Origin: Escherichia phage MN01
Length of the DNA: 64,000 nt
Sequence record: MT129652.1
Reading direction: 5' to 3' (one strand)
Shown here: positions 44,409 to 62,473 of the stretch, piece after piece
Position numbering within the stretch: position 1 is the stretch's first letter
Layout: every line of letters starts with the position of its first letter
The notes under the pieces: model-generated
What the model was told of the DNA's origin: nothing
Databases searched by the model: none
The model's input: the letters and a program-made list of their open reading frames with translations, nothing else
Position numbers and translations under genes: made by a program

Positions 44409-44409
44409 T

Positions 44410-44778: not shown

Positions 44779-44779
44779 T

Positions 44780-44974: not shown

Positions 44975-44990
44975 GCGGAAAGGGGGTGTT

Positions 44991-45158: not shown

Positions 45159-45190
45159 TGGTCCTTCGGGGCCATTGAAATGAGGAAACT

Positions 45191-46219: not shown

Positions 46220-46416
46220 GAAGGGATTCCGGTAAAGTAACCGATGATGGAATGGATATGTTCCATTGTGACCTGGGGTAAGTGTACCCCTTGTGATGCA
46301 GCGATAGGCACAACCAGTAAGTTCCACAGAAAAACATCAAGAGCTAAAAAGCCCATGATTAGTTTTTTGTCTTTCTTACTGGTTAATTTCCAAATCTGAT
46401 AGAATAATGTTCCCAT
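46216..46416 (-). CDS. Hypothetical small membrane protein, minus strand (paralog 2)
   Basis: 66 aa; GGTGG SD on the minus strand; LWNLLVVPIAASQG motif shared with the neighbouring minus-strand gene. Confidence 0.45.
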   Translation of the reverse strand: MGTLFYQIWKLTSKKDKKLIMGFLALDVFLWNLLVVPIAASQGVHLPQVTMEHIHSIIGYFTGIPS

Positions 46417-46424
46417 AGTTCCAC

Positions 46425-46622
46425 CTATACAAGGCCGATTAATGCCAGTGAAACATCTACAACCGATTCGAGCGCGACGACTGGTAATATAATACCATAT
46501 GTCAATGCAACAGGAGCAACAATGAAGTTCCAGAGTAGAACTGAACAGAGCACCGAAAGGACCAGAATCGTTCGCTTACGACTGCCTTTGATGGCTTGAA
46601 TTAGACTAGATAGTTTTAGCAT
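46425..46622 (-). CDS. Hypothetical small membrane protein, minus strand (paralog 1)
   Basis: Start at internal ATG with AGGAGG SD 6 nt upstream (minus strand); LLWNFIVAPVALTYG motif; 65 aa. Confidence 0.5.
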   Translation of the reverse strand: MLKLSSLIQAIKGSRKRTILVLSVLCSVLLWNFIVAPVALTYGIILPVVALESVVDVSLALIGLV

Positions 46623-46706
46623 ATATCCTCCTTTCTTGTATTTATGCTTCAAACCAATACGATATAATTAACATACAAATAACATGAATTGATAAGGAAA
46701 AATATA

Positions 46707-47225
46707 ATGGCTCATTTTAACGAGTGTTCTCAACTGATTGCGGGTGTTGATAAAGCTGAAGAAGCTTATGACAATGCAATTATCGAAGGTACTGACCCGC
46801 TGCAGATTATGCTTGATATGCAGAAATCTTTGCAGGTCCGGTTGGCTACTGAAAAACCAGAATATAACTCACATCCAGATGAATTGGCTACTGCAGGTGA
46901 TGTTGTTACCTGGCTCCGCAACCAGAAAGATTATATTGATGATGAATTCCGCGAACTGATTACTGCATTAGGTGGCATGTCCAATGGCGAGAAAGCTGCC
47001 TCGGCCGTATGGAAACCATGGAAAGCACAACATGGTGAAATGCAGCAAACCCTGATTAACGATTTGTCTCCTGAAGACCAGCTCGAAATTAAATTCGAAA
47101 TGATTGATATCCTGCACTTTGTTCTGAACATGTTCCATGGTCTTGGTCTATCTGCAGAAGAAATCTTTAAACTGTATTACCTGAAAAACGCTGAGAACTT
47201 TGCTCGTCAGGACCGAGGTTATTAA
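46707..47225 (+). CDS. 56: dCTP pyrophosphatase gp56 (MazG-like)
   Basis: MAHFNECSQLIAGVDKA...DPLQIMLDMQ...EDQLEIKFEMIDILHFVLNMF...NFARQDRGY closely matches T4 gp56. Confidence 0.9.
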   Translation: MAHFNECSQLIAGVDKAEEAYDNAIIEGTDPLQIMLDMQKSLQVRLATEKPEYNSHPDELATAGDVVTWLRNQKDYIDDEFRELITALGGMSNGEKAASAVWKPWKAQHGEMQQTLINDLSPEDQLEIKFEMIDILHFVLNMFHGLGLSAEEIFKLYYLKNAENFARQDRGY

Positions 47226-47506
47226 TGGCTCGTTTAAATAAACGTCAGCTTAAGAAAGCTCGTAAGAAGCATATTAATGATATAATTGAAAACGCTAATG
47301 TTGAAATCTTTGTAGAACTTTTAGCCAATCAACTAAAAAATTTATCTAAACAAGAAATTGCTATGAATACTGAAAATGCTAAAAATGTAATCGAAACTCA
47401 TAATGTTTTTGCCCAAGCTACTGCTGAATACATTGCTAATCCTACTGCTGAAAATCTAGCTAAAATGACCGAAGCCAATAAAGCAGTCCAAGCCGCCAAA
47501 TTGTAA
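47225..47506 (+). CDS. Hypothetical protein
   Basis: 93 aa; basic N-terminus. Confidence 0.5.
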   Translation: MARLNKRQLKKARKKHINDIIENANVEIFVELLANQLKNLSKQEIAMNTENAKNVIETHNVFAQATAEYIANPTAENLAKMTEANKAVQAAKL

Positions 47507-47508
47507 GT

Positions 47509-47516
47509 TATAAATA
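47509..47516 (+). promoter_or_regulatory. Late promoter (TATAAATA) for soc
   Basis: Exact TATAAATA about 32 nt upstream of the soc ATG. Confidence 0.55.
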
Positions 47517-47547
47517 CACCTGTAATTAAACATCAAAGGAGATAATT

Positions 47548-47781
47548 ATGGGTGGTTTCGTTAATATCAAAACCTTTACGCATGCAGCTGGTGAAGGTAA
47601 AGAAGTTAAAGGTACTGAGGTTTCAGTTCCATTTGAAATCTATTCTGATGCGCATCGTATTGCTAATGCTCATTATCAGACTTTCCCTTCGGCCGTTGCA
47701 GCCTATTCTACTGTAGTGACTGATGCTGCTGACTGGAAGACCAAGAATGAGGCAATGTTTACGCCGACCGATATTGTTTAA
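47548..47781 (+). CDS. soc: Small outer capsid protein Soc
   Basis: GFVNIKTF...EVSVPFEIYSDAHRIANAHYQTFPSAVAAYSTV matches T4 Soc; 77 aa. Confidence 0.85.
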   Translation: MGGFVNIKTFTHAAGEGKEVKGTEVSVPFEIYSDAHRIANAHYQTFPSAVAAYSTVVTDAADWKTKNEAMFTPTDIV

Positions 47782-47785
47782 TTAT

Positions 47786-47832
47786 AGGGACTCTTCGGAG
47801 TCCCTTTTTGCTTTTAATAGAAGCGGTATAAT
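47786..47832 (+). promoter_or_regulatory. Terminator hairpin followed by a MotA-box middle promoter
   Basis: AGGGACTC-TTCG-GAGTCCCT + TTTTT; then TTTGCTTTT, about 11 nt, TATAAT (47827-47832). Confidence 0.55.
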
Positions 47833-47857
47833 TATTTCAATTACAGAGGAGAATACT

Positions 47858-48055
47858 ATGTTAAACCGTTGGATTAAACCAAATAAAGCTTTAGATGAAA
47901 TTATTGCTCATGATGTCCATTTTAAGTATGGATTGGGTGTGTTTGATGAGGTTATCGTACATTCATTCATGATGCATGACGATGACTCTTTAGAATTCAA
48001 TATTGAAATCCGATGTGATGATGGTAAAGTTGAATTTAAACGAGGTTTCCTATGA
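47858..48055 (+). CDS. Hypothetical protein
   Basis: Internal ATG at 47858 after GAGGAGAAT SD; 65 aa. Confidence 0.4.
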   Translation: MLNRWIKPNKALDEIIAHDVHFKYGLGVFDEVIVHSFMMHDDDSLEFNIEIRCDDGKVEFKRGFL

Positions 48056-48393
48056 TTAGTTGGCTCAAGAATTTATTCAAGACTAAACCTGGTGAGGGTG
48101 TGGTTCCAGTTAACGTGCCAGATGTTAAGCTAAGAGAATATGTTTACATGGGCGACGGCATGATGGAAGAAGTGGTCAAATCGAAATCAAAAGACCTATA
48201 TTCTACAATGTCAGAAGAAGACTTACAAAAACGTTTAACTCGACTGCAAGAACAAAGAGCTCAAGCGCAAAGCAGTATCGATACTACTTCGATTGTGGTC
48301 ACCGCTGCTGCAGTCAGTTCGTGGACCGGTGATTCGTCTTATTCCTCCTATGATTCGGGAAGCTGTGATTCGTCTTCCAGCTCGTGTGATTAA
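48052..48393 (+). CDS. Hypothetical protein with Ser-rich C-terminus
   Basis: 113 aa; C-terminal SSWTGDSSYSSYDSGSCDSSSSSCD. Confidence 0.45.
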   Translation: MISWLKNLFKTKPGEGVVPVNVPDVKLREYVYMGDGMMEEVVKSKSKDLYSTMSEEDLQKRLTRLQEQRAQAQSSIDTTSIVVTAAAVSSWTGDSSYSSYDSGSCDSSSSSCD

Positions 48394-48588
48394 ATGAGAA
48401 TTACAAGTTGGCTTAAAGATTGGTTGGTTACTCCAGGGATTGATGATTCCTGGGTGGCCAGAGCCGAGGAAGAAATGCAGCGCGAAGCCGAAGAATGGGC
48501 CGTTAACGGGCTTAAAGCCATGCAGGAAAAGAAGACCGAACGAGCAGCGCTTAAACTGATGCGTGATATCTACGGAGATAAATCATGA
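48394..48588 (+). CDS. Hypothetical protein
   Basis: 64 aa; N-terminus [10 protein letters not shown] resembles MISWLKNLFK of the upstream gene. Confidence 0.4.
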
Positions 48589-48734
48589 CACAAGAAGACG
48601 CTGAACGCCGGGCAAAAGAAGCGCTGGATTTGCTTTTGAAAATTGGCAGTAAAATGATGGAAGAAAACGAAAAGTACATCAAGGAAAATAAAGTTCCTGA
48701 TGGTCCATTAGTTGGTAAGAGGAAATCATTATGA
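48585..48734 (+). CDS. Hypothetical small protein (49 aa)
   Basis: ATGA overlaps at both ends. Confidence 0.35.
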
Positions 48735-49219
48735 AAGTATATGAATTAGAATTCTATGTCCGTGATTCCGCTGGACAGACACGACCTTACGATGCTACCG
48801 CATGCCTTATCATGGTTTACAATGGCATGGATTCGGTCACTGCATTGGAAACAAAATTAATGAACCTGACGATGCCAGAAAACGTTATGCTGAAAGTATT
48901 TCATAGAAAAAACGTTAATGTGGCCGAAGGGTGCCCGTTTACTGTTTCCGAAGCTCTGCACATCAAAGGCTATCGTTATCCGGACCATTATGCAGAAGGA
49001 ACCGCGGATATTTTCTATAAAGATACTGATAAAAATTCCAATGAACGTCTTCAGGGTCGCACTTATCTGATTTCTGCACCTGAAGACCTTACTGAAGTCG
49101 AACGTCAGATTTGGAAACACTTTGATATCGGCTTGCGCTTTACTTTAACAGAAGAAGCTCTGCGCGATACTAAAATGCGTGCTCGTATGTATGGTTACGG
49201 TCCTATCGGTGGTTACTAA
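48731..49219 (+). CDS. Hypothetical protein (mrh position)
   Basis: 162 aa; position between soc and the modA/modB-like genes. Confidence 0.5.
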
Positions 49220-49398
49220 TGGATTTATTTGAACTTTTTGAAGAGCCTAAAGCTCCTACGGAAGCCCGTGTTGACCTAGTTGACGAACTTGATGCGATTA
49301 TACAGAAGCACGGTTTTAGCCTCCCAATGGAAGTTCTACGCGACCTGGCCTCATATTATGACGACCCACCTCCATGGGCACCATGGGTGAAACAATGA
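49219..49398 (+). CDS. Hypothetical small acidic protein (59 aa)
   Basis: TAATG overlap; ends PPPWAPWVKQ. Confidence 0.35.
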   Translation: MDLFELFEEPKAPTEARVDLVDELDAIIQKHGFSLPMEVLRDLASYYDDPPPWAPWVKQ

Positions 49399-49649
49399 AC
49401 TGGTTAACAAATATTCCCACATCGGCGCTGGATATCGACCGTAAACATGCTCATAAGGAAATCGAGCAACAAAAAATTAATCGGTTACAAAGGCTTAAGA
49501 CTGAATCCGAGACAATTAAAGCCGAACGACCGACAGAATCGAAAAGTTCTTACTCATCATATCAATCTCCTAACTCATCATATCAATCTCCTATTGGCAT
49601 GGCCGTAGACATTGCAGTCTTTGGCGTTCCACTTGGAGTGTTTAAGTAG
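49395..49649 (+). CDS. Hypothetical protein with SSYSSYQSPNSSYQSP repeat and hydrophobic tail
   Basis: Internal ATG at 49395; 84 aa. Confidence 0.35.
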   Translation: MNWLTNIPTSALDIDRKHAHKEIEQQKINRLQRLKTESETIKAERPTESKSSYSSYQSPNSSYQSPIGMAVDIAVFGVPLGVFK

Positions 49650-49705
49650 TTTACTTACTCCCCTCCTAATGACATAATGGTCTTTCTTACAACAGAGAGA
49701 CCATT

Positions 49706-50266
49706 ATGAACATCATCAAATCTGATACCGAACCCAACCAGTTAAAATTTAGTGAAATGGAGATAGCTTCATTATTTGAATGCCGCACATCAAAGGTTGA
49801 TAAGACCTTGCATTCAAATGTCAACTCAATCATCAAGTCAAGGTTGTCTATACCCGATACAGTCTTGTGGCGCGGAGTAACCCAGCAAGAGATTGATTTG
49901 TTAGATGAAGCAAAAGAATCAATGCAACCTTTTGAATTTGGACGGGTAACCTCCTTTACAGAAGACTATGGTATTGCCAGGGATTTTGCTGCAATGGAAT
50001 ATGTGACTAGGACTATCGTCAGATTGAATCAGACCAAAGCTTTTTGTTACCATGATGCGATGCGCAAAATCGCGCTTGACGTTCCACTGGAATTCTTCAA
50101 TACAGCTTCTGGTTCCGCCCGGGCAGCTACATTAAGGCGCGAAGAATACATGGACATGATTGATTCTGAGCTTGAATGGTTTGTTCCAGTTGACCAGAAA
50201 TTCGTGGTAGTTGACGCTGGATTTGTTGGTGATTATTATGTTCTTGACTGTGTACAAGAGCAATAA
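49706..50266 (+). CDS. ADP-ribosyltransferase, ModA/ModB-like (first copy)
   Basis: R-S-ExE triad candidates LWRGVT, TSFT, ELEWFVP; 186 aa; tandem with a paralog. Confidence 0.6.
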   Translation: MNIIKSDTEPNQLKFSEMEIASLFECRTSKVDKTLHSNVNSIIKSRLSIPDTVLWRGVTQQEIDLLDEAKESMQPFEFGRVTSFTEDYGIARDFAAMEYVTRTIVRLNQTKAFCYHDAMRKIALDVPLEFFNTASGSARAATLRREEYMDMIDSELEWFVPVDQKFVVVDAGFVGDYYVLDCVQEQ

Positions 50267-50310
50267 GACACGTTAAGATGTTCCTATCAACTACTGATGA
50301 GGATAATAAA

Positions 50311-50925
50311 ATGCTGTACACTGATGACGTTTTGAATGGAATTATTGACACTGCCGCTTCTAGCGAGTCTTTTCGTGACCAATGTCAAGCTGAGATTGAT
50401 GCTCTTTATACAGATAATGAGCAATCAGTACTCTGGCAGTGTATGGAAAATAAACCCGACCTGATTCAAGAAGACTTGTCCAGGATTATCCGCAACAATC
50501 TGAATACTGCACCGCCGGCAGCATTGTTCCGTGGTATATCAAAGAAAACCATGGAATACCTGGAAGATTTAAGATATGTTGGTGCAATAATTGAGTTCAA
50601 CCGTGTGATGAGTTTTTCCAGAGACTGGCAGGTTGCAAGAAATTTTGCATCATACAGTTTCTATGGCACAAGGAACATTTTCTGTATAAACAATGCACCA
50701 TATGCGTATAACTATCAGGAAGCAATCTTCAAAATGATTTGCGGTGCTCCTCCCGAAGAGTTCAATGGTGCATATCCAGAAGCAACCAGGAAGTCAAACC
50801 TACACCTGGTTAATGATGAGGATGAGTTTATGTTTCCCGCTGGGACTACGCTTCGCGTAGACTTGATTGAAACTCACCCATTGAATAACCTTTATACTGT
50901 TTGGCATTTGACTGTTTTGAACTAA
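50311..50925 (+). CDS. ADP-ribosyltransferase, ModA/ModB-like (second copy)
   Basis: LFRGIS, MSFS, DEDEFMFP motifs; 205 aa; family-B leader upstream. Confidence 0.6.
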   Translation: MLYTDDVLNGIIDTAASSESFRDQCQAEIDALYTDNEQSVLWQCMENKPDLIQEDLSRIIRNNLNTAPPAALFRGISKKTMEYLEDLRYVGAIIEFNRVMSFSRDWQVARNFASYSFYGTRNIFCINNAPYAYNYQEAIFKMICGAPPEEFNGAYPEATRKSNLHLVNDEDEFMFPAGTTLRVDLIETHPLNNLYTVWHLTVLN

Positions 50926-50982
50926 CCAAAGACCTTAGAACCATTATACGCAGTAAAAATAAAAGCGTTAAAGGTGAAAAAG

Positions 50983-51060
50983 TAGTGTACATGAAAGATG
51001 AACAGTGTATAATAATTTCATACTGAGTTACCAAATCGTCCGTAAGATGAGAAAAATAAC
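50983..51060 (+). promoter_or_regulatory. Promoter-leader cassette, family A variant
   Basis: GTGTACATGAAAGATGAACAGTGTATAATAATTTCATACTGAGTTACCAAAT. Confidence 0.45.
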
Positions 51061-51804
51061 ATGAATATGTCAAAAGAAGAGTTTGAATTAAAAGTTTACA
51101 AACGTCGCGAGCATACCAAAACGTCTGCAAAACGTCGTAACAAGGATTTCAATCTGTCTAGTAAGTATATTGCTAATCTTTTGAAACAAGAATTCTGTGC
51201 GTATTCTGGTGAACGTTTTGATGAAAATTCAACTCAAGATAAAGTTTCCTTTGAACGCTTTAACAATGATATAGGTTATATTGAAGGCAATGTTATCCCT
51301 GTCAAAACTAAGTACAACGGTTTACGTGCTGATTTATCTCTTGATGAACTTAAACGTGCACAGACTCGTTTGGCGGTGCGTATTAATGGCGGTTCTAAGA
51401 TGCCCAATAGTTTTAAAGTAACTCCTGATGGCTATTATAAAATTCGCAAAATTGTTAAAAATATTAAAGATACTGAACGTGGAATCAAGAAGCGTCAAAA
51501 ACATTTAAAAGAGCTTTATAAAAGTGGCGCTAAAGATACCACCCCTTCTGTGATTGCAGTCAAGGCTCGTATACATGGACAAATGGCTTCCATTGGAACT
51601 AGTCAACGTGGACTGAAAATGGTTATGGGTGGTCCTGACTGGCGTCTGAAAATGAAATCATCTGACGCTGAAACGCGTTACGATATGTATGATAAAATTA
51701 TTCAAGGTCTGGAGCGTTTAGATAAGTTGTCATTCATTGACCGTCTTAAACTGAAACGTGGCCTGCCTTTGAACGCGTCAATTTTTAAACTGATTAGAGG
51801 TTAA
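51061..51804 (+). CDS. srd: Srd-like protein
   Basis: 247 aa basic protein at the T4 srd position (between the modA/modB-like genes and dda.1/dda); no motif confirmed. Confidence 0.4.
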   Translation: MNMSKEEFELKVYKRREHTKTSAKRRNKDFNLSSKYIANLLKQEFCAYSGERFDENSTQDKVSFERFNNDIGYIEGNVIPVKTKYNGLRADLSLDELKRAQTRLAVRINGGSKMPNSFKVTPDGYYKIRKIVKNIKDTERGIKKRQKHLKELYKSGAKDTTPSVIAVKARIHGQMASIGTSQRGLKMVMGGPDWRLKMKSSDAETRYDMYDKIIQGLERLDKLSFIDRLKLKRGLPLNASIFKLIRG

Positions 51805-51805
51805 T

Positions 51806-52105
51806 GTGATGTACTACGCATATGTGCTGGTCCACAAAGATAAAGATGGTTTTGAACACCCATTGGAGTATAATGGAAAGGTTACCTTATACACCACAAA
51901 AGCGGGCGCAGAATATGAACTTGCCAACTATTCATATACTACAAACCGATATTTAAGTATGGGACGTATTGAAACCAGTTACATTCCCAGGAAGTGGTGG
52001 TTTGATAAACGGGAAACAAAAACAGTTTTTCCTACTGAAGAACACGCACGAGAATTGAAACAGGTTTTATATACTTTATATGTTAAGCGAGTAAAATTGG
52101 CATGA
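51806..52105 (+). CDS. Hypothetical protein (dda.1 position)
   Basis: 99 aa; ATGA overlap with the dda start. Confidence 0.5.
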   Translation: MMYYAYVLVHKDKDGFEHPLEYNGKVTLYTTKAGAEYELANYSYTTNRYLSMGRIETSYIPRKWWFDKRETKTVFPTEEHARELKQVLYTLYVKRVKLA

Positions 52106-53430
52106 TTAAATTTGAAGACTTGAACACAGGACAAAAAGAAGCTTTTGATTATATCACTGAAGCTATTCAGCGACGTTCAGGGGAATGTATCACTCTGAAT
52201 GGTCCAGCTGGCACAGGTAAGACCACTCTGACAAAATTTGTCATTGACCACTTAGTGCGTAATGGAGTTATGGGAATTGTGCTCGCTGCACCAACTCACC
52301 AGGCGAAAAAAGTTTTATCTAAATTGTCTGGTCAAACAGCGAATACAATCCATAGTATCTTGAAGATTAACCCGACCACATATGAAGACCAAAACGTTTT
52401 TGAACAGCGCGAAATGCCTGACATGTCAAAATGTAATGTTCTGGTTTGCGATGAAGCAAGTATGTATGACGGGTCTCTGTTTAAGATTATTCTTAACTCT
52501 GTTCCTGAATGGTGTACTATTCTTGGGATTGGTGATATGCACCAGCTGCAGCCGGTTGACCCAGGAAGTACACAACAAAAGATAAGTCCATTCTTTACGC
52601 ATCCTAAGTTCAAACAGATTCATTTGACTGAGGTCATGCGAAGCAATGCTCCTATCATTGAAGTGGCGACAGAAATTCGCAATGGTGGTTGGTTCCGCGA
52701 CTGTATGTATGAAGGTCATGGCGTGCAAGGTTTCACCTCACAAACTGCTTTAAAGGATTTCATGGTAAACTATTTCAGTATTGTAAAAGATGCTGATATG
52801 TTGATGGAAAACAGGATGTATGCATACACGAATAAATCAGTTGAAAAACTGAACAATATTATTCGTCGCAAGCTATATGAAACGGATAAAGCATTTTTAC
52901 CGTATGAAGTCCTGGTTATGCAAGAGCCGCACATGAAAGAGCTGGAATTTGAAGGTAAGAAATTCAGCGAAACCATTTTTAATAATGGTCAGTTGGTTCG
53001 CATCAAGGATTGCAAATACACTTCCACCATTCTCCGTTGTAAAGGCGAATCGCACCAGTTAGTGATTAATTACTGGGACCTGGAAGTTGAGTCAATTGAT
53101 GAAGATGAAGAATATCAGGTTGACCGCATTAAAGTTTTACCAGAAGACCAGCAACCAAAATTCCAGGCATATCTGGCGAAAGTTGCTGACACATACAAAC
53201 AGATGAAAGCCGCTGGTAAACGTCCAGAGTGGAAAGACTTCTGGAAAGCGCGCAGGACCTTTTTGAAAGTTCGTGCTCTTCCGGTCAGTACAATCCACAA
53301 GGCCCAGGGCGTTTCAGTGGACAAAGCATTCATCTATACTCCATGCATCCATATGGCCGAAGCTTCATTAGCGAGCCAGTTGGCTTATGTTGGAATCACA
53401 CGAGCGAGGTACGACGCATATTATGTATAA
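52102..53430 (+). CDS. dda: DNA helicase Dda (SF1B)
   Basis: Walker A GPAGTGKTT; LAAPTHQAKKVLSKLSG...; C-terminal TIHKAQGVSVDKAFIYTP; strong match to T4 Dda; 442 aa. Confidence 0.95.
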   Translation: MIKFEDLNTGQKEAFDYITEAIQRRSGECITLNGPAGTGKTTLTKFVIDHLVRNGVMGIVLAAPTHQAKKVLSKLSGQTANTIHSILKINPTTYEDQNVFEQREMPDMSKCNVLVCDEASMYDGSLFKIILNSVPEWCTILGIGDMHQLQPVDPGSTQQKISPFFTHPKFKQIHLTEVMRSNAPIIEVATEIRNGGWFRDCMYEGHGVQGFTSQTALKDFMVNYFSIVKDADMLMENRMYAYTNKSVEKLNNIIRRKLYETDKAFLPYEVLVMQEPHMKELEFEGKKFSETIFNNGQLVRIKDCKYTSTILRCKGESHQLVINYWDLEVESIDEDEEYQVDRIKVLPEDQQPKFQAYLAKVADTYKQMKAAGKRPEWKDFWKARRTFLKVRALPVSTIHKAQGVSVDKAFIYTPCIHMAEASLASQLAYVGITRARYDAYYV

Positions 53431-53668
53431 AGTACATAAAGAAGATTTAGATAATCTTATCTATGGTATTCAGGACGCGGTTGAATTTTTCGAAGATAAT
53501 CCGACTATCGTCGTGCAGGGTAATTACGTTTTGCTGGAACTGAATCTTATTCGGAAACGTATGGCCGCGATTGAATATTTTAACAATGAAGAGCCAGGGA
53601 TTTTTATCTCCGACTATGTTGCTGGTGAAATTCAGAAATTAAAAGAGATGTGCGATGGTTGCTGGTGA
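53423..53668 (+). CDS. Hypothetical protein (dexA.1 position); C-terminus altered by tandem duplication
   Basis: Internal ATG at 53423; reading frame runs into the second copy of the 40-bp repeat and ends ...EMCDGCW. Confidence 0.45.
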   Translation: MYKVHKEDLDNLIYGIQDAVEFFEDNPTIVVQGNYVLLELNLIRKRMAAIEYFNNEEPGIFISDYVAGEIQKLKEMCDGCW

Positions 53669-53697
53669 AATTCAAAAATTAAAAGAGATGTGCGATG
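53618..53697 (+). repeat. 40-bp tandem direct duplication (2 copies, 1 mismatch)
   Basis: GTTGCTGGTGAAATTCAGAAATTAAAAGAGATGTGCGATG at 53618-53657, repeated at 53658-53697 with CAG to CAA; spans the upstream stop and the dexA ATG. Confidence 0.9.
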
Positions 53698-54378
53698 ATT
53701 GATGCTATTATTGACTTTGAAACTCTGGGAAACGGCTCGAAGGGAGCCGTTATTGACCTGGCTCTGATTACATTCGAATCTGACCCTGCTATTGTGGAAT
53801 CATTCGAAACCCTGGTTAATCGCGGCAAACGTATTAAGTTCAGTCTCGAATACCAAAAAGGTAAGCGGTTGTTCGACACAACAACCATGGGTTGGTGGAA
53901 AAAGCAATCAGCGGAAGCCCGTGTTAACTTGGCTCCTTCTGCACAAGATGTTGATACTCTGACCGGTATCCAACAAGCAATTGATTATCTGAATGGTAAT
54001 GGAATTAACAAATACGAAAGCCTTATGTGGTGTCGTGGAATGTCTTTTGACTTCCCGTTGTTTGTTGACCTTATCCGCGACCTGCAACGCAATGAGGGGA
54101 TTCCTGAGCGCGAATTGAATACCTATGACCTGGAGCCGGTTGTATTCTGGAACCAGCGAGATATCAGGACAGCCATCGAAGCCCTATCACTCGTCCGTAA
54201 GATGTGTGAAACTCCATTACCGAAGGGGACTTTAGATGGATTTGTGGCGCATGATTCGGTGCATGACTGCGCGAAAGATATTTTGATGTTGAAGTATGCC
54301 CAGCGCTATGCTCTTGGTTTAGATGAAGTTCCTTCCGAAGAAGATGCAGACCCATTATCTTTACCGAAAAAACGATAA
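53695..54378 (+). CDS. dexA: Exonuclease A (DexA, DEDD family)
   Basis: MIDAIIDFETLG...WCRGMSFDFP...GFVAHDSVHDCAKDILMLKYA matches T4 DexA; 227 aa. Confidence 0.92.
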   Translation: MIDAIIDFETLGNGSKGAVIDLALITFESDPAIVESFETLVNRGKRIKFSLEYQKGKRLFDTTTMGWWKKQSAEARVNLAPSAQDVDTLTGIQQAIDYLNGNGINKYESLMWCRGMSFDFPLFVDLIRDLQRNEGIPERELNTYDLEPVVFWNQRDIRTAIEALSLVRKMCETPLPKGTLDGFVAHDSVHDCAKDILMLKYAQRYALGLDEVPSEEDADPLSLPKKR

Positions 54379-54445
54379 AAAGTAGTGTACAAGGCCAATG
54401 GAAAGAGACATAATTATCTCATCAACTACTGATGAGGATAACAAA

Positions 54446-54703
54446 ATGATTACTTCTTTTGAAATTGGCCAACAATATGAAATGTCTGCTCTTCAAGCTG
54501 CTGAAGCAGGTCTGACTAAAGCGTTTGAATGTGCATTTACAAATATTCGTGGTAAAATCTTTACTGTCAATAAAATTGCGGTATATGATAAAGAAACAGA
54601 CATGAACAAAGGCATCTACTTGAACGTGTCAAACGCAAAAGGTCGTCGTGAAATTATGGTTGTACAACCTAACCAACTGGCGATGTTCAATAAGGTTGCA
54701 TAA
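54446..54703 (+). CDS. Hypothetical protein
   Basis: Internal ATG right after the family-B leader; 85 aa. Confidence 0.45.
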   Translation: MITSFEIGQQYEMSALQAAEAGLTKAFECAFTNIRGKIFTVNKIAVYDKETDMNKGIYLNVSNAKGRREIMVVQPNQLAMFNKVA

Positions 54704-55458
54704 TGAAACCAGAATTTATTGACTTTGATGTTGTAAGCATGTATGTTCGCCCAATTAAACCATTAAAACTTGAGAAACAAAATATGACTATTGAAATTAA
54801 CAAAACTTATCAACTGATTGAACCTATTATTCAAAACGCAGCTATGGTTTCTGGGTATAATACTCTGACTGATGCTTTAGGCGAAGGTGAATTTATTGTT
54901 GAAACTTTTGTAAAAAGTAACTGGTTTGATAAAGCATATATTCTACATGCACGTCGCCTTGATACAAATGAAGTAGAAAAAATTACGGTTTATGAAGCTG
55001 AGATTGAACTCTTCAAAGAAGTTGAAGAAACTCCTATCAAAGTTGGTAAAACCTATCAGCTTATTGAAGATGCTAGTCAGTTTGGAAAGACCGTTGCAAT
55101 GCATGCTGGTTGGCGCGTACTGAAAGGTATTTTTGGATTTGCTCCATTTACCGTTAAAACAGTTAAGTACCACAATCACCAAAGCATCTTTGAATTTACT
55201 GCGGTCAATGAATCAGGTGACAATCTTGAAGCTATCCTTTATCCGCGTGAATCTGTACTGCTGGAAGAAGTTAGCGAACTGGGTGACCCTATTGACTTGC
55301 TGTGTAAACCAGTTCAAATCAAACGCCCATTTAACAGTTCCATTTGTGGTTGGGTAACAGACCAGTGGATTGAAGAGGGTGTTGAACTCCTGAACGTTGT
55401 TCATGCTGGTGAATTTACTGTTGTACCACGTTCCATGGTTGTTGAAATTTTTAATTAA
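54703..55458 (+). CDS. Hypothetical protein with internal repeat; paralog of 55538..56098
   Basis: 251 aa; repeated NKTYQLIEPIIQNAAMVSG / GKTYQLIEDASQFGKTVAMHAG; C-terminal GWVTDQWIEEGVELLNVV...FTVVPRS shared with the next gene. Confidence 0.55.
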   Translation: MKPEFIDFDVVSMYVRPIKPLKLEKQNMTIEINKTYQLIEPIIQNAAMVSGYNTLTDALGEGEFIVETFVKSNWFDKAYILHARRLDTNEVEKITVYEAEIELFKEVEETPIKVGKTYQLIEDASQFGKTVAMHAGWRVLKGIFGFAPFTVKTVKYHNHQSIFEFTAVNESGDNLEAILYPRESVLLEEVSELGDPIDLLCKPVQIKRPFNSSICGWVTDQWIEEGVELLNVVHAGEFTVVPRSMVVEIFN

Positions 55459-55537
55459 ATTTAAAGTGTACAAACTCTTGGGGTCGGAGTATAATGACCC
55501 CACTGGAGAATAAACTTATTAACCAAGAGAGAAAATT

Positions 55538-56098
55538 ATGAAAGTTGAAGCTGGCGAAATCGTTCGCGTATCCAAAAAATCTCGTTCAAGAGCTGCTGGA
55601 CGTTTTGTTGAGGTTGTCAGTATTCGTGCTGATATTTTTGTTGACCATCCTGATAATGAAGTAAAGGTGCGTATCATTCCCAAAAATGGTCAGACTGAAA
55701 CTCAATTCGCTTATGTACGTGCTAAATTCCTGGAATCAACTGCTATCACTGCCACCAACCTCCCTGTGGTTGAAGAAGTTGAATCCCATGATGGATATGT
55801 GTGCGAAAGCAATGATATTCGTGGCGTAATTGCTCAAGACGTTGAAACCATTGACCAGTCTCATGTTGGGGTTGATTTTAAATGGAAATTGGGCAAAGGT
55901 GTCTTTTTTGTTTCACCTAAACCGTTTGAATATGTTGACGAACCTTTTGGTACTTATGAAACCACTAGCATGTCTGGTTACATCACAGACCAGTGGGTTG
56001 AAGAAGGCGTTAAGCTCTATAACATCGTGTTCCTTGGAACCTTTAAGGTGGTTCCTGAAAGCTTTATCGTTGAGTATGCTGATATTCATCGTGCCTAA
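55538..56098 (+). CDS. Hypothetical protein; paralog of 54703..55458
   Basis: 186 aa; C-terminal GYITDQWVEEGVKLYNIVFLGTFKVVPES. Confidence 0.55.
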   Translation: MKVEAGEIVRVSKKSRSRAAGRFVEVVSIRADIFVDHPDNEVKVRIIPKNGQTETQFAYVRAKFLESTAITATNLPVVEEVESHDGYVCESNDIRGVIAQDVETIDQSHVGVDFKWKLGKGVFFVSPKPFEYVDEPFGTYETTSMSGYITDQWVEEGVKLYNIVFLGTFKVVPESFIVEYADIHRA

Positions 56099-56146
56099 AT
56101 TATAAAAATGATAGGGTAATTTTGCCCTATCAATGAGGAGAATATT

Positions 56147-56371
56147 ATGTTTAATGAAGATTGTGTAACCACTTCCCTGACCGCTGAAGAGTTTTGGGAT
56201 ACTGCTGAAAGTGATAAAGTGATTGTGAAGAAAAACATCAATGAATTTCTTTGCACCACTGATATCATTTATGTGTATGCAGACAAAGACGCAGAACTAC
56301 CTAGCTATGCACTGTTCCGCGAAGAATCAGAAAATGGTACAGATTTTTGGAAGGAGATTTATAATGTCTAA
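56147..56371 (+). CDS. Hypothetical acidic protein
   Basis: 74 aa ORF. Confidence 0.4.
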   Translation: MFNEDCVTTSLTAEEFWDTAESDKVIVKKNINEFLCTTDIIYVYADKDAELPSYALFREESENGTDFWKEIYNV

Positions 56372-56735
56372 ATTTGAAACTGATAAGTGGTATTATTTTA
56401 AAGATAATGTTGCTGAAAGCAGATTCCGTTTGTTATGCTCTGATAATGATAATATAGCCAATGCTATAATCAATGGCGAGGGATTTAGACCAGTCAGAAT
56501 TGAAGATGGTGATGTGTATAAAATGGAATTATCAACTGGTGAATTTGTGAGCCTATTCATAAAGGAAGATGAATTCCGTTTCTTTGAAGAAGAAAAAGAT
56601 GACGATACTGAAGATGAATGCGAAGACGCAGCTCCATCTGAGCCAAGCGAATTCCCTTTGACTAAAATCACCATCTCTAATAACTCCGAAGCCTGGACCG
56701 TTTACCAGATGTTGAAAGCACACTTTAAGGAATAA
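56364..56735 (+). CDS. Hypothetical acidic protein
   Basis: Internal ATG at 56364 after AAGGAG SD; 123 aa; Asp/Glu-rich stretch. Confidence 0.45.
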   Translation: MSKFETDKWYYFKDNVAESRFRLLCSDNDNIANAIINGEGFRPVRIEDGDVYKMELSTGEFVSLFIKEDEFRFFEEEKDDDTEDECEDAAPSEPSEFPLTKITISNNSEAWTVYQMLKAHFKE

Positions 56736-56736
56736 C

Positions 56737-56913
56737 ATGCCACTTTATGATTACAAATGTCAATCTGATGACTGCGCGAAAGAATACGAAAAAATCAAGA
56801 AAATCTCTGAAAGAGATAATGATGTTTGTCCTGATTGCCATCGGCTGGCTGTTCGGTTAGTCTCGGCTCCTAAACATGTTAATGGCGGTTTTTACGACCT
56901 GCTGACTAAGTGA
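56737..56913 (+). CDS. FmdB-like zinc-ribbon small protein (58 aa)
   Basis: MPLYDYKCQSDDC...CPDCH pattern typical of the FmdB/regulatory zinc-ribbon family. Confidence 0.45.
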   Translation: MPLYDYKCQSDDCAKEYEKIKKISERDNDVCPDCHRLAVRLVSAPKHVNGGFYDLLTK

Positions 56914-56919
56914 GAAATT

Positions 56920-57180
56920 ATGAAATACATTAATCGTTCTATTGCCGCGCTGGTGCTGGCGGTTTCATTGGCTGGTTGTACTGATGCAGATAACGCCATT
57001 CGTGTATTAGATGCAAACGGCTATGAGCAAATCCAAATCACCGGTTATAACTGGTTGGGTTGCTCTGAAGATGATTTTCAGCATACTGGTTTTACAGCCG
57101 TAGGCCCAACTGGTAAGAAAGTTAAAGGAACTGTTTGTTCTGGTTTGCTGTTTAAGAATTCAACCATCCGATTTGAATGA
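56920..57180 (+). CDS. Putative lipoprotein
   Basis: Signal peptide with lipobox LAVSLAGC; 86 aa. Confidence 0.45.
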   Translation: MKYINRSIAALVLAVSLAGCTDADNAIRVLDANGYEQIQITGYNWLGCSEDDFQHTGFTAVGPTGKKVKGTVCSGLLFKNSTIRFE

Positions 57181-57592
57181 GGCTATTATGTTTAAAATTG
57201 GAAAGAGTTATTGCATTAAAGATTTAGATGGCTTCCTTAAACATGTCGGTATGCCCGGTAGCATTTTGAACCAACAAGGAACCTCTATTATTGATTTGGT
57301 TACTACCAAAGAGTTTTCAGTCACTAAGATGGAAGCAAATGTTGTTACGGAATTTAGTACTATCGATGGAACTGGATTTTCTTTCCATAGTCGTAATGGA
57401 ACCGGTCTTATTTTTGGTGATGAATTTAAATATTTTGAAGAAACCCCGATAAAGGAATGTGATTCTGAAATAACCGAACAGGAATCAAAAGAGGATATCG
57501 TTGTTACCGGTGGCGATGTTATTATTACGGTTAAAACTGAAGTCGGACGCCTACAAGCTATTAAAATGTTAGAGCAGCTTCGATTCAAATAA
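57173..57592 (+). CDS. Hypothetical protein
   Basis: 139 aa; terminator follows. Confidence 0.45.
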   Translation: MNEAIMFKIGKSYCIKDLDGFLKHVGMPGSILNQQGTSIIDLVTTKEFSVTKMEANVVTEFSTIDGTGFSFHSRNGTGLIFGDEFKYFEETPIKECDSEITEQESKEDIVVTGGDVIITVKTEVGRLQAIKMLEQLRFK

Positions 57593-57635
57593 AAGGCCTT
57601 CGGGCCTTTTTGCTTTAAAATATGTGACTTATAAT
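57593..57635 (+). promoter_or_regulatory. Terminator hairpin followed by a MotA-box middle promoter for gene 39
   Basis: AGGCC-TTCG-GGCCT + TTTTT; TTTGCTTTA, 12 nt, TATAAT (57630-57635). Confidence 0.55.
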
Positions 57636-57657
57636 ACCTCCATACACAAGAGGAAAG

Positions 57658-59490
57658 ATGATGATTAATAATGAAATTAAAGTACTCTCGGACGTTGAGC
57701 ATATCAAAAAACGTTCCGGGATGTATATTGGTTCCAGTTCAAATGAAGCGCATGAGCGATTCTTGTTTGGTGAATATAAGTCCGTAAGCTATGTTCCTGG
57801 TATTGTAAAACTGATTGATGAAATTATCGATAACTCTGTTGATGAAGCAATTCGCACCAGTTTTAAATTTGCCAATAAAATTGATGTCCAAATTAAAGAT
57901 AATCAGATTTCGGTTTCCGATAATGGCCGTGGTATTCCACAGGCAATGGTTACAGACCAAAACGGTGAACAAATCCCTGGCCCTGTTGCAGCATGGACTA
58001 TTCCAAAAGCTGGTGGTAACTTCGGCGATGATGCTGAACGTAAAACTGGCGGGATGAACGGCGTCGGGTCTTCTCTGACCAATATTTTCTCTGTATTGTT
58101 TACCGGGATTACCGCTGATGGTGCAAATGAAATCACCGTTAACTGCTCCAATGGTATGGAAAACAAATGTTGGTCGACTAAGAAATCAAAAGGTAAAGGT
58201 ACGACTGTTATATTTATTCCAGACTTTAGTCACTTTGAAGAAAATAGTCTGTCCCAGATTTATCTGGATATTACATTGGACCGTCTGCAGACTCTTGCGG
58301 TTGTTTATCCGGATATTCAGTTTACCTTTAATGGTAAAAAGGTTGATGGTAATTTCAAAAAGTTTGCCAAGCAATTCGGAACCGAAGTTGTTATCCAGGA
58401 AACTGATACAGTATCGATGGCCTTTACGACTAGTCCGGATGGTTTCCGTCAGTTGACTTATGTCAACAACATTCATACAAAGAATGGTGGGCACCACGTT
58501 GAATGTGTTATGGATGATATCTGTGAACATCTTCAACCAGCCATTAAACGCAAATATAAAGGCATTGAGGTGACCAAGGCACGAGTTAAAGAATGTCTCA
58601 CCATGCTTATGTTCATCCGCGATATGAGCAACATGCGATTTGATTCCCAGACTAAGGAGCGATTGACTTCTCCGGCTGGTGAAATTCGAAATCACATTAA
58701 GATTGATGCCAAGAAAATCGCGCAAGCTATTCTGAAAAATGAACCGCTGATTATGCCGATTGTTGAAGCTGCATTAGCCCGTAAATTGGCAGCAGAGAAA
58801 GCAGCAGAGACAAAGGCGAATAAGAAAGCTTCGAAGGCCAAGGTGCAGAAACATATCAAGGCAAACGAATGGGGTAATGATAAACTGGAAACGACTCTGT
58901 TCCTGACCGAAGGTGATTCCGCAACCGGTCCATTTATCAAGGTTCGCGACCGTGAATTGCAAGGTGCTTATCCGTTACGCGGTAAGTTCAAAAACACATG
59001 GGGTCTGAAAGCTGTTGACGTTATGAAGAACGCCGAAGCCTTTGATGTGTGTGCGATTACTGGTTTAACGATTGGACAACCGGCCGAGAATATGAATTAC
59101 CGAAACATTGCTATCATGACAGATGCGGATGTGGATGGTGTCGGTAGTATCTATCCATCGTTATTGGCGTTTTTCAGTAACTGGCCAGAGTTGTTCCATG
59201 AAGGACGAATTCGCTTTGTGAAAACTCCTGTTATTATTGCGCAGCTCAAAGATAAACAAGAATGGTTCTATTCTCTTCCTGACTATGAAGAAGCTAAGGA
59301 TAAACTTCCGAAGCACACCATCCGATATATCAAGGGGCTTGGTTCTCTGGAAGATGCCGAGTACAAACGCGTATTGCTCGAACCGGTATTCGAAGTTGTT
59401 GAATTACCTGACAACTGGAAAGAACTGTTCGAAATGCTCTTCGGTAAAGATTCCCAGCAGCGTAAAGATTGGATGAATGCGACACTATAA
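57658..59490 (+). CDS. 39: DNA topoisomerase II large subunit gp39, fused with the gene 60 portion
   Basis: GHKL ATPase motifs (IDNSVDEA, DNGRGIP, GGMNGVGSS) and C-terminal TOPRIM region in one 610 aa frame; close match to T4 gp39. Confidence 0.95.
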   Translation: MMINNEIKVLSDVEHIKKRSGMYIGSSSNEAHERFLFGEYKSVSYVPGIVKLIDEIIDNSVDEAIRTSFKFANKIDVQIKDNQISVSDNGRGIPQAMVTDQNGEQIPGPVAAWTIPKAGGNFGDDAERKTGGMNGVGSSLTNIFSVLFTGITADGANEITVNCSNGMENKCWSTKKSKGKGTTVIFIPDFSHFEENSLSQIYLDITLDRLQTLAVVYPDIQFTFNGKKVDGNFKKFAKQFGTEVVIQETDTVSMAFTTSPDGFRQLTYVNNIHTKNGGHHVECVMDDICEHLQPAIKRKYKGIEVTKARVKECLTMLMFIRDMSNMRFDSQTKERLTSPAGEIRNHIKIDAKKIAQAILKNEPLIMPIVEAALARKLAAEKAAETKANKKASKAKVQKHIKANEWGNDKLETTLFLTEGDSATGPFIKVRDRELQGAYPLRGKFKNTWGLKAVDVMKNAEAFDVCAITGLTIGQPAENMNYRNIAIMTDADVDGVGSIYPSLLAFFSNWPELFHEGRIRFVKTPVIIAQLKDKQEWFYSLPDYEEAKDKLPKHTIRYIKGLGSLEDAEYKRVLLEPVFEVVELPDNWKELFEMLFGKDSQQRKDWMNATL

Positions 59491-59517
59491 ATAGATACGG
59501 GAGAATATTCTCCCGTC
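59486..59517 (+). promoter_or_regulatory. Late promoter (TATAAATA) overlapping the gene 39 stop, followed by a hairpin
   Basis: TATAAATA at 59486-59493; inverted repeat ACGGGAGAATATTCTCCCGT at 59498-59517. Confidence 0.4.
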
Positions 59518-59532
59518 TTATAGGAGAAGTCC

Positions 59533-59685
59533 ATGAAAAAGTGGTGGGTTACGTTGTCAAATGGCGAATACGGTTATCTGTGGGCCGATACTAAACCTCT
59601 GTTTGCATCCTTTGTCACCATTATGTGCGAGACTTGGGATGGCGAATACTATACCGCATATGGGCAAGTCTATAAAGTTGAGTAG
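59533..59685 (+). CDS. Hypothetical small protein (50 aa)
   Basis: ATG after AGGAGAAG SD; Trp/Tyr rich; terminator follows. Confidence 0.3.
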   Translation: MKKWWVTLSNGEYGYLWADTKPLFASFVTIMCETWDGEYYTAYGQVYKVE

Positions 59686-59688
59686 CCA

Positions 59689-59711
59689 AAAGGACCTTCG
59701 GGTCCTTTTTT
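59689..59711 (+). terminator. Rho-independent terminator
   Basis: GGACC-TTCG-GGTCC + TTTTTT. Confidence 0.65.
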
Positions 59712-59761
59712 ATTATGTACAAGCCACAAAAATTACGTTAAGATATCCTTGAGGTGAACAT

Positions 59762-60061
59762 ATGATTATGTCTGACGGAAGTTTAGTTAATCTGCAGAAT
59801 GTTGCACGTTGTATTATGGAAGCTGGTCTGAGGAAGGTACAGGAGCTCCCAGATAGCGACAGGAAGCGAAGTTACTTGTTGGCTGTAAGAGCATCAGCCA
59901 TGAGCATTAAGGCTGGCCAGAAGGTTCCTGAGGAGCGAATTGAAGCACTCCTTGCATTGATATACCATGGCCAAGAACATAAAGCTACCATGCGTAGTAT
60001 GAGAAAAATATTGCAGGAGATTGGAAATGACAAACTTCAAAGTGAATATGGAACTGTTTGA
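59762..60061 (+). CDS. Hypothetical protein
   Basis: 99 aa ORF. Confidence 0.45.
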   Translation: MIMSDGSLVNLQNVARCIMEAGLRKVQELPDSDRKRSYLLAVRASAMSIKAGQKVPEERIEALLALIYHGQEHKATMRSMRKILQEIGNDKLQSEYGTV

Positions 60062-60230
60062 TAAGGCTATCCATAAAGAATACCGTGTTATCCAACGATT
60101 TTTTGATATAAGAGAAGCTGAAGAGTTTAAAGAACGCTTCAAAGAAATCCGTATTAAAATAGCTTCAGACACCGCAACAAAGGATGAACTTCTTGAAGTT
60201 GCAGAATTAATCAAACGTAACATAAAGTGA
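60021..60230 (+). CDS. Hypothetical protein (start uncertain)
   Basis: 69 aa ORF overlapping the previous gene; alternative ATG at 60048. Confidence 0.35.
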   Translation: MEMTNFKVNMELFDKAIHKEYRVIQRFFDIREAEEFKERFKEIRIKIASDTATKDELLEVAELIKRNIK

Positions 60231-60237
60231 GAAAAAC

Positions 60238-62472
60238 ATGATTTTAGAAACTGAAAAGGAAACAATCCTTGGTAATGGTGCCAAGGCATCAGCATTCACA
60301 ATCCAGGCATCTCCAAAGGTGTTTAAGATTCTGACCAGCGACCTTTACACAAATAAGGTGCGTGCAGTTGTTCGTGAGCTGATTACCAATATGATTGATG
60401 CTCATATGCTCAATGGCTGTCAGGATAAATTCATTGTCCAAGCTCCTGGTGAACTGGACCCACGTTTTGTGTGTCGTGACTTTGGTCCGGGTATGAGTGA
60501 TTTCCAGATTCGTGGTGATGAAAATACTCCAGGTCTGTATAACAGTTTCTTTGCATCATCCAAGGCTGAATCCAATGATTTTATTGGTGGCTTTGGTCTG
60601 GGTTCTAAATCTCCGTTCAGTTATACAGAGACGTTTAGCCTGATTTCGTATCATGATGGCCAAGTTAATGGTTATGTCGCTTATATGGATGGCGATGGTC
60701 CACAGATTAAGCCGACCTTTAGCGAACCAATGAAACCCGGTGACCGTACGGGGATTGAAGTTGTTGTCCCGGTTGATAGTAATGATTTTGGTAAGTTCCG
60801 CCACGAGATTTCATATATCATGCGCCCATTTGCTGGACTGGCTGAAGTACAAGGCGTAGGCGAAATTAATTACTTCCCGGAATTTGATGATTATTATGCT
60901 CCAGAGCGTATTGATTATAGCAGCCCAGAACGTTATGGTCTTTATGCAATTTACGGTGGAATTGTTTATCCAATTGCCGACGGTTATACAAAGAAAACCT
61001 GGATGACCGCCAAAAATGATGTTGTCTTTATTAAGTTCCCGATGGGTTCGTTGGATATTGCACCTTCTCGCGAAGCATTATCACTGGATAAACGTACGGT
61101 CGCAAATATCGTTGAACGTATTGAATCCCTTGATAAGAAAGTCATGGAAGATGATTGTAAGAAATGGCAGGAATCAGAATGTATCCGCCACACGTATCGC
61201 GAATTACAGAGTCTGAGTTATGAAGCTCGTAATTTTCTGAAAGCTCGTAATGCTGAAACGAAATTTACGAAATCGCAATTGACCTTTAACCAGATGTATG
61301 AAATGTTCGAGCTGGACAAAGACCTTATTAATGCCGGGGTTGTCTATGATATCTATAGCACTACCCGTCTGAAACGTCTGCGTAACTCAAGCTCGAACAC
61401 GAATACTGCAAGCCTGACGAGCATGTTTGGTATTCAGAATAATACCTTGAACATTGTTATTGACGATGCTAAAGGGCGAATTGCGATGATTCGGGGCATC
61501 AGTTCAATGCTGTATGACACCAGCGCGAAAGCCAAAAAGCTCAAAGCATCTGGTAAAGTCCCGACTGTACAAGGTAGTAGTCTATTGTTCGTTGACCCAA
61601 CCAGCGAAATTCAAACACGTCTGATGGTTCAACTTCAAGAACGATTTAAAGGCGATACAGTTAATATCTATCGTACGTCTGAACTGACCGCCCTTGTAAA
61701 AGACTGGATTCCGGTTGCTGACCCGAAAGCGCGCGTTAAGTCAAAGACTCCATCATTGATTCGTTGGACTAAAACTAATGGCAAATGGCAGTCTGTTGAA
61801 GAATTTACATGTGCAGCTGATGCAGAGGAAATCGATGGTTATGCTGTATTCATTAACCGCAGTAGCATTTCCCCGTTGAATCAAGAATATGGCACCACGA
61901 CCTTCGGGACCCAGACATTGTGTAAACTGGCAAACCTGTTGGAAATCAATGAATTCTGTGTTATTCGTCCACAGCTTCAGAAAAAGGTTACCAAGCTGGC
62001 GCAGTGTGATTGTTTGATTGAAGCTGCAGTCAATCGTTATGTGGAATTGATTGATTCAGTTGATGCGGACCAGTACATTGCCGCTTCAAGCCGTTCGCGT
62101 TATTATATTCCTATCCTGTCTGAATATGCGGAACTGAATTTTATGTTCAAGTATTTTTATGCAAAAGATGTTCAGAAAGATGTGAATACTGACTATGCCG
62201 AACTAATGCAGTTCAATAAGTTCTTTGCTTATAACGCATATAACAGTGGAACGGTTGATAAGACCATGCAGGAAACTCTGGTCCTTTGTAATAAGATTTA
62301 TGACGACCTGACCAAAAACGCTTCGGTAACAAGTGATAAAATGGTTTTTGAATTTGAAAAGAATCACCCGATTGTTTCACACTTTTTATATAACCGTAAC
62401 GCCATGTCAACTGAACAAGTACAGAACGTTGCTCAAATCATGAAGGCCGTGGAAGCGGCCAATAAGGAATAA
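60238..62472 (+). CDS. rIIA: rIIA protein (membrane-associated, GHKL-type ATPase domain)
   Basis: N-terminal N-box ELITNMIDAH and G-box DFGPGMS; 744 aa (T4 rIIA about 725 aa); followed directly by an rIIB-like gene. Confidence 0.8.
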   Translation: MILETEKETILGNGAKASAFTIQASPKVFKILTSDLYTNKVRAVVRELITNMIDAHMLNGCQDKFIVQAPGELDPRFVCRDFGPGMSDFQIRGDENTPGLYNSFFASSKAESNDFIGGFGLGSKSPFSYTETFSLISYHDGQVNGYVAYMDGDGPQIKPTFSEPMKPGDRTGIEVVVPVDSNDFGKFRHEISYIMRPFAGLAEVQGVGEINYFPEFDDYYAPERIDYSSPERYGLYAIYGGIVYPIADGYTKKTWMTAKNDVVFIKFPMGSLDIAPSREALSLDKRTVANIVERIESLDKKVMEDDCKKWQESECIRHTYRELQSLSYEARNFLKARNAETKFTKSQLTFNQMYEMFELDKDLINAGVVYDIYSTTRLKRLRNSSSNTNTASLTSMFGIQNNTLNIVIDDAKGRIAMIRGISSMLYDTSAKAKKLKASGKVPTVQGSSLLFVDPTSEIQTRLMVQLQERFKGDTVNIYRTSELTALVKDWIPVADPKARVKSKTPSLIRWTKTNGKWQSVEEFTCAADAEEIDGYAVFINRSSISPLNQEYGTTTFGTQTLCKLANLLEINEFCVIRPQLQKKVTKLAQCDCLIEAAVNRYVELIDSVDADQYIAASSRSRYYIPILSEYAELNFMFKYFYAKDVQKDVNTDYAELMQFNKFFAYNAYNSGTVDKTMQETLVLCNKIYDDLTKNASVTSDKMVFEFEKNHPIVSHFLYNRNAMSTEQVQNVAQIMKAVEAANKE

Positions 62473-62473
62473 T

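Follow-up and report, generated by a model that had tools for sequence, protein, structure and literature searches.

The stretch of phage DNA analysed here (64,000 nucleotides, hereafter the window) belongs to a T4-like phage, a member of the genus Gaprivervirus (group of VR7, SP18 and VR20). The genes and features of the locus all lie on the + strand. The first of them is dda (52102–53430), a DNA helicase gene recognized by the Pfam families SH3_14 and AAA_30. It is followed by a small DexA.2-like gene (53423–53668), which encodes a protein of 81 amino acids ending in ...EMCDGCW and was identified from the list of open reading frames, PHROG 5263 and GenBank annotations. The third gene is dexA (53695–54378), encoding the 227-aa exonuclease A, an assignment supported by PF16473 (E = 5e-16), the exonuclease profile phrog_255 (E = 6.5e-75) and GenBank annotations. 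An untranslated spacer of 26 nt (53669–53694) separates the DexA.2-like stop from the dexA ATG; it is absent from relatives that carry the sequence described below in one copy, as the two genes overlap there. A mini-ORF of 15 codons (53655–53702; translation MVAGEIQKLKEMCDD followed by the stop) runs across the spacer and was created by the duplication that is the subject of this report. The order dda, small ORF, dexA is kept out to the Karamvirus CC31.

The small protein matched PHROG 5263 over profile positions 1–76 of 77 (E = 2.9e-32). Our own Pfam scan of the protein (53423–53665) returned no family; the scanned copy of Pfam may lack PF26837 (Phage_T4_Y00H_G), for which a precomputed match was found on the identical 81-aa protein in a contig collection. 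The GenBank records of VR20 and ECML-359, among others, annotate the gene as 'similar to T4 DexA.2'. Its start has been annotated variously, at the ATG at 53387, deep inside dda, in UPEC01, UPEC07, CJ20 and YenM_P8 (93 or 91 aa), and at the ATG at 53423 in VR20, ECML-359 and SP18 (81 or 79 aa). We favour the start at 53423 because the CC31 homolog is 80 aa long. At 53423–53430, the end of dda and the beginning of the DexA.2-like gene have 8 nt in common (ATGTATAA), and this overlap shares the design ATGNNTRA with the ancestral DexA.2-like/dexA junction, ATGATTGA.

At the boundary between the DexA.2-like gene and dexA, a 40-bp unit (GTTGCTGGTGAAATTCAGAAATTAAAAGAGATGTGCGATG) is present twice, head-to-tail, with copy 1 at 53618–53657 and copy 2 at 53658–53697. 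A preliminary description of the window, made from its sequence, had reported a tandem duplication here and called it exact in its title, although its own text gave the one G/A difference. The position was correct; the copies are identical at 39 of 40 positions, the sole mismatch being G53635 versus A53675 at unit position 18. Tandem Repeats Finder ranked the array as the top tandem repeat of the 64-kb window (period 40, 2.1 copies, score 154). A search of the window with the unit, allowing up to three mismatches, recovered exactly two copies, compared with 0.00 expected from 100 dinucleotide-preserving shuffles. The 40-bp tandem duplication is confirmed as real and beyond chance. Copy 1 encodes the C-terminal DexA.2-like residues VAGEIQKLKEMCD, and its final three bases repeat the dexA start codon. 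Copy 2 contains the DexA.2-like TGA (53666–53668), the 26-nt spacer, a Shine-Dalgarno-like AAGAG (53683–53687) and, as its last three bases, the dexA ATG (53695–53697). The upstream ORF thus ends in ...EMCDGCW within copy 2, and dexA starts at the end of that copy, both as originally proposed. The junction reads GTGYGATGGTTGYTGG in two-copy genomes and ACTATGTTGCTGG...GTGYGATGATTGATGC in one-copy genomes.

In one-copy relatives, the DexA.2-like protein has 79 amino acids and ends in ...EMCDD, which is the C-terminus that had been presumed ancestral. The TGA of the small gene overlaps the dexA ATG by 8 nt in these genomes (ATGATTGA). This length of overlap, ancestral in the genus Gaprivervirus, contradicts the ATGA overlap assumed for the ancestor; the 4-nt form was seen only in the distant CC31, where dda, an 80-aa homolog of the small protein and dexA follow one another and the stop/start overlap is ATGA. 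Homologs of the small protein outside the genus were found only in Karamvirus-type Enterobacter phages and are ~33% identical. A single copy with overlapping genes is also present in the divergent clade of VR7, VR25, VR26, TH15 and TH40. Since a single copy and overlapping genes are shared by the one-copy relatives, the VR7 clade and the outgroup CC31, sequence comparison indicates that overlapping genes and a protein of ~79 aa are ancestral and that the duplication is derived, in agreement with the polarity suggested at the outset.

The consequences for the two annotated genes are small. The frame of the upstream gene is indeed shifted, as had been noted, but the effect is limited to the very end of the protein, where Asp79 is replaced by Gly and Cys-Trp is added. 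The PHROG profile is already covered by DexA.2-like residues 1–78. Because copy 2 supplies the leader, dexA keeps an identical 37-nt leader, including the Shine-Dalgarno-like AAGAG 7 nt before the ATG. The 8-nt stop/start overlap is replaced in the window by the 26-nt spacer, so that translational coupling to dexA could change; the suggestion to this effect in the preliminary description is therefore plausible. The duplication also explains why the small ORF has been annotated with 79, 81, 91 or 93 aa.

The distribution of the duplication was determined with a megablast search of 53387–53800. The 33 records retrieved represent 27 distinct GenBank phages, and the junction was read directly in all 27 loci. 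Two copies were present in nine of them (TH22, TH55, TH41, TH54, TH57, UPEC01, UPEC07, ECML-359 and VR20), which matched over the full 414 bp. The other 18 have one copy and matched over 374 bp in two pieces. TH22, TH41, TH54, TH55 and TH57 come from raw sewage in the USA, UPEC01 and UPEC07 from wastewater in Uganda and VR20 from wastewater in Lithuania; the ECML-359 record gives no country. The carriers were sequenced by several independent groups. Two copies were found, in addition, in seven independent metagenome/SRA assemblies (ENA or Logan), which were reached by exact look-up of the 81-aa protein and then read at the DNA level.

This distribution bears directly on whether the array could be a recent replication slip private to the isolate, or else a single copy that was mis-assembled. 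The near identity of the copies is what such a history would leave, and copy number can evidently change on short time scales. The one-copy phage EAWsc9 has ±300-bp flanks identical to those of the two-copy phages UPEC07, ECML-359, TH22 and TH55, which argues for a recent copy-number change on one haplotype. Nevertheless, the same junction is present in nine GenBank genomes, with three countries named, and in seven independent assemblies, and the window's own form of the repeat (CAA in copy 2) is common to seven of these genomes and two SRA contigs. Moreover, one short read is enough to span an 80-bp array, and assemblers do not create such arrays by mistake. A private slip or mis-assembly is thus highly improbable as an account of the array, and the single-copy artefact that the preliminary description had named as its refutation is effectively refuted by the population data. 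Assembly artefact and isolate-private mutation are excluded by these observations; the duplication is a natural length variant of related T4-like phages from the USA, Uganda and Lithuania.

The protein look-up also gave a measure of how common the variant is. Among the cluster members listed, exact matching placed ...EMCDGCW on 18 contigs and ...EMCDD on 92. The frequency of the two-copy allele is roughly 15–35%, a rough estimate, as the look-up biases metagenome carriers to variants that are silent in the DexA.2-like frame. Scanning the viral_contigs collection with the unit re-found only VR20, VR25 and VR26, and the same scan of metagenome_contigs gave a single contig, which has one copy. 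The best 20-kb matches of the window (44000–64000) were EAWsc9 and M719-6WT.2, both one-copy, at ~96% identity; the genome is therefore distinct from the listed relatives. Around dexA, the flanks of the window are a mosaic of several known genomes. A separate anomaly was observed in the record of phage DCP80 (PQ671644.1, 140,978 bp; 3159–4374), where terminase and tail-sheath genes follow ~200 bp after dexA. All other relatives have motB.1 and motB at this place, so that the DCP80 record either is mis-assembled or reflects a rearrangement or a large deletion.

We distinguished at least six forms of the repeat, with differences at unit positions 5, 9, 18 and 36. In form A, found in the window, seven GenBank genomes and two SRA contigs, copy 1 has CAG and TGC and copy 2 has CAA and TGC. 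Form B (VR20 and UPEC01) has the same copy 1, with CAG and TGT in copy 2. The remaining four forms come from metagenome/SRA contigs. Form C (L033) combines CAG and TGC in copy 1 with T at position 5, CAA and TGC in copy 2; form D (L037 and L038) has this same copy 2 behind a copy 1 with CAG and TGT. In form E (L041), copy 1 has C at position 9, CAG and TGC, and copy 2 has T at position 5, CAG and TGC. Form F (L042) has CAG and TGT in both copies, which are exact at 40 of 40 positions. The variants at positions 9, 18 and 36 were found in one-copy genomes too, as would be expected from exchange between one-copy and two-copy phages. The C-to-T change at position 5, by comparison, was seen in copy 2 only (L033, L037, L038 and L041) and in no one-copy genome read. 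In the extended DexA.2-like frame the change leaves the residue as it is (TGC to TGT), whereas in the mini-ORF, which is the ancestral frame, it turns Ala into Val. Its restriction to copy 2 would fit relaxed constraint on that copy; the contigs concerned were found by exact protein look-up, which favours changes silent in the DexA.2-like frame.

All 17 carriers, namely the window, the nine GenBank genomes and the seven metagenome/SRA contigs, share one and the same junction, GATG|GTTG. No perfect microhomology was found at the end points of the unit, with T53617 facing G53657 on the left and A53698 facing G53658 on the right; the right end point shows an imperfect TTGNTG match only. The short perfect direct repeats expected at both end points after slipped-strand mispairing are thus missing, and the replication slippage suggested in the preliminary description is one candidate mechanism among others. 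With no perfect microhomology at the end points, independent events would be unlikely to strike the same two bases repeatedly, and a single origin of the duplication appears most likely from these sequences.

The alternative is recurrent origin at a hotspot, for example by unequal exchange between co-infecting phages with different alleles. Such exchange would explain why copies 1 and 2 often carry different population variants. Indeed, CAA occurs as a single copy only in M719-6WT.2 and TGT only in DK-13, PSD2001 and the metagenome contig L031, so that copy 2 of form A equals the single-copy allele of the former and copy 2 of form B that of the latter three, while copy 1 is the common allele and the carriers stand on unrelated flanks. 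One origin with later homologous exchange, or the collapse of two-copy arrays, would account for these mixed forms just as well, however, and the mosaic flanks show that exchange with one-copy genomes is rampant. The end points are, furthermore, the same in every carrier though no perfect microhomology directs them there. We consider recurrent origin unlikely.

To follow the history of the single-origin allele, we examined the sequences close to the junction. In a MAFFT alignment of the whole locus, the position of the 40-bp gap was inconsistent, and the flanks were therefore analysed separately. Trees built from 2 kb on either side scattered the carriers among one-copy genomes; with flanks this mosaic, they are uninformative on whether carriers form a clade. 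We therefore turned to SNP tables, pairwise distances and four-gamete tests close to the junction. The 10 two-copy genomes have seven distinct ±300-bp haplotypes, up to 29 substitutions apart. All four gametes were present for copy number against SNPs as near as −4, −7 and +75 bp. The preliminary description had taken the duplication for a recent event. With the same junction in nine GenBank genomes and seven metagenome/SRA assemblies, on at least seven haplotypes and in at least six sequence forms, this dating does not hold, and the sequences indicate that the two-copy allele is not young.

Loss of a copy may also be part of this history. The flanks of M719-6WT.2 and DK-13 are close to those of two-copy genomes, and the single-copy CAA and TGT variants match what collapse between the copies would leave; import of these variants into copy 2 is equally compatible, and the two cannot be told apart. 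We propose a single origin of the duplication, in an illegitimate event that took place without microhomology and could have been unequal exchange or slippage. Highly active homologous recombination would then have spread it onto many genetic backgrounds, and it would sometimes have been lost again through recombination or slippage between the copies. Collectively, our results make it likely that the array is a heritable 40-bp tandem duplication allele segregating in natural Gaprivervirus populations, and one that is probably near-neutral.

The mini-ORF offers a possible reason for near-neutrality. Its ATG at 53655 is the duplicated dexA ATG and stands behind the copy-1 leader with AAGAG at 53643–53647. 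Its TGA (53700–53702) overlaps the dexA ATG by 8 nt, as the stop of the ancestral gene did (ATGATTGA). As 40 = 39 + 1 and dexA starts in the +1 frame relative to the upstream gene, the duplicated ATG automatically falls into the ancestral frame of copy 2. The peptide is a copy of its neighbour's C-terminus, with Ala changed to Val in four metagenome contigs. In every two-copy genome read, the mini-ORF is open and has its stop on the dexA ATG. With this arrangement the mini-ORF may be translated. Ribosomes starting at 53655, or re-initiating there after terminating 11 nt downstream, would be passed to dexA. Because the stop of the mini-ORF restores the 8-nt overlap, the hand-over of ribosomes to dexA could continue, and the duplication would be largely self-buffering because the downstream initiation region was copied along with the end of the upstream gene. 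We infer a buffering role for the mini-ORF, and the net fitness effect of the duplication is probably close to neutral.

Predictions at the RNA level were consistent with this picture. The mean unpaired probability from −15 to +12 around the dexA start was 0.54 in the two-copy state versus 0.49–0.52 in one-copy sequences. The 121-nt repeat region showed no unusual RNA structure (z = +0.78), and no Rfam family was found in the repeat, the sole match being isrF at 12.9 bits against a cut-off of 40 bits. A scan of 53618–53697 found no promoter-like or terminator-like site. Two further explanations of the unit were rejected, a MotA box or sigma-70 promoter inside it by inspection and the promoter scan, and a target-site duplication left by a mobile element by the finding that nothing lies between the copies.

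Could the duplication instead be an adaptive regulatory allele, which uncouples dexA from the upstream gene or uses the mini-ORF as a leader that tunes DexA synthesis? Its intermediate frequency and its persistence on many backgrounds, although 40-bp direct repeats are expected to be unstable, might be read in this way, and could reflect positive or balancing selection. The same can be said of the intact mini-ORF, open and ending over the dexA ATG in every carrier read. Yet an open mini-ORF is an automatic by-product of the geometry, since the ancestral coding end and copy 2 share their sequence, and the mini-ORF peptide is not conserved, as the Ala-to-Val change in four contigs shows. Moreover, no change in the accessibility of the dexA start is predicted, and dexA and dexA.2 are genes that we take to be non-essential in T4. 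An adaptive role is accordingly improbable in our view. The more specific proposal, that selection keeps the allele as a segregating translational-coupling switch in which the mini-ORF ribosome relay sets DexA independently of the upstream gene, is quite improbable as well. The near-neutral allele is the reading retained below.

We also considered recoding, in which ribosomes would bypass or frameshift across 40 nt, from GAT 53652–53654 to GAT 53692–53694, and so remake ...EMCDD. Matching GAT codons do stand exactly 40 nt apart, a spacing that follows simply from the duplication. The would-be take-off GAT is not followed by a stop codon, however, and the unit has no X XXY YYZ slippery heptamer; a stable hairpin is not predicted in the repeat, nor is there an Rfam element. 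As the defining signals are absent, translational bypass or frameshifting was rejected, and its probability is very small. The window repeat differs in the same respects from the bypass in T4 gene 60, as it lacks a take-off stop, a slippery heptamer and a stimulatory structure.

Small tandem duplications and deletions have long been known from work on T4 rII and lysozyme (Streisinger-type slippage and unequal or illegitimate recombination). The 40-bp duplication resembles those of T4 in being head-to-tail, tens of bases long, derived relative to one-copy relatives and revertible by collapse. It differs from the laboratory mutants of T4 in being a long-lived natural polymorphism, with many haplotypes, at least six forms and no perfect microhomology. 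A second likeness is to the coupled overlapping gene pairs of T4-like early clusters, seen in the 8-nt overlap of one-copy relatives, the ATGA of CC31 and the 8-nt dda/DexA.2-like overlap. Unlike such pairs, the two annotated genes of the window are 26 nt apart; the DexA.2-like and dexA genes do not overlap, whereas the mini-ORF and dexA do, so that the mini-ORF provides the overlap, and the coupling is putative. Similar to leader ORFs that relay ribosomes, the mini-ORF has its own Shine-Dalgarno-like sequence and ends atop the dexA start. Unlike them, it is a by-product of the duplication with a variable peptide, and no structured RNA was found with it.

Our limited literature searches found no prior description of the junction duplication. 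GenBank has contained the two-copy sequence from the VR20 record onwards, if not longer; the 81-aa ORF is listed there as hypothetical. We regard the duplication as a new, undescribed case within a familiar class, the ordinary small tandem duplications, rather than as a novel type of element. Its biological weight is small, as it amounts to a small indel polymorphism, and the early-gene block of the T4-like phage in which it lies is non-essential. It can nonetheless be typed by PCR as a 40-bp length marker, both to tell Gaprivervirus lineages apart and to track recombination in mixed infections, and it illustrates in natural genomes how duplicating a stop/start overlap can buffer its own effects. 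If the mini-ORF relay does matter, the locus would also be a small case study in translational coupling.

The window contains other tandem repeats. An exact 21-bp repeat in two copies (ACTCATCATATCAATCTCCTA, TRF score 84) lies at 49552–49593, in frame within a 91-aa ORF (49374–49649), and encodes the peptide SSYQSP twice. Relatives matched this ORF over 276, 270 or 255 bp, the last being 276 − 21. With this variation in length, the ORF represents a second tandem-unit length polymorphism in the same early-gene block. Tandem Repeats Finder also reported a 24-bp repeat at 47418–47463 (1.9 copies, 81% match) and an 18-bp repeat at 18506–18543 (2.1 copies, 90% match).
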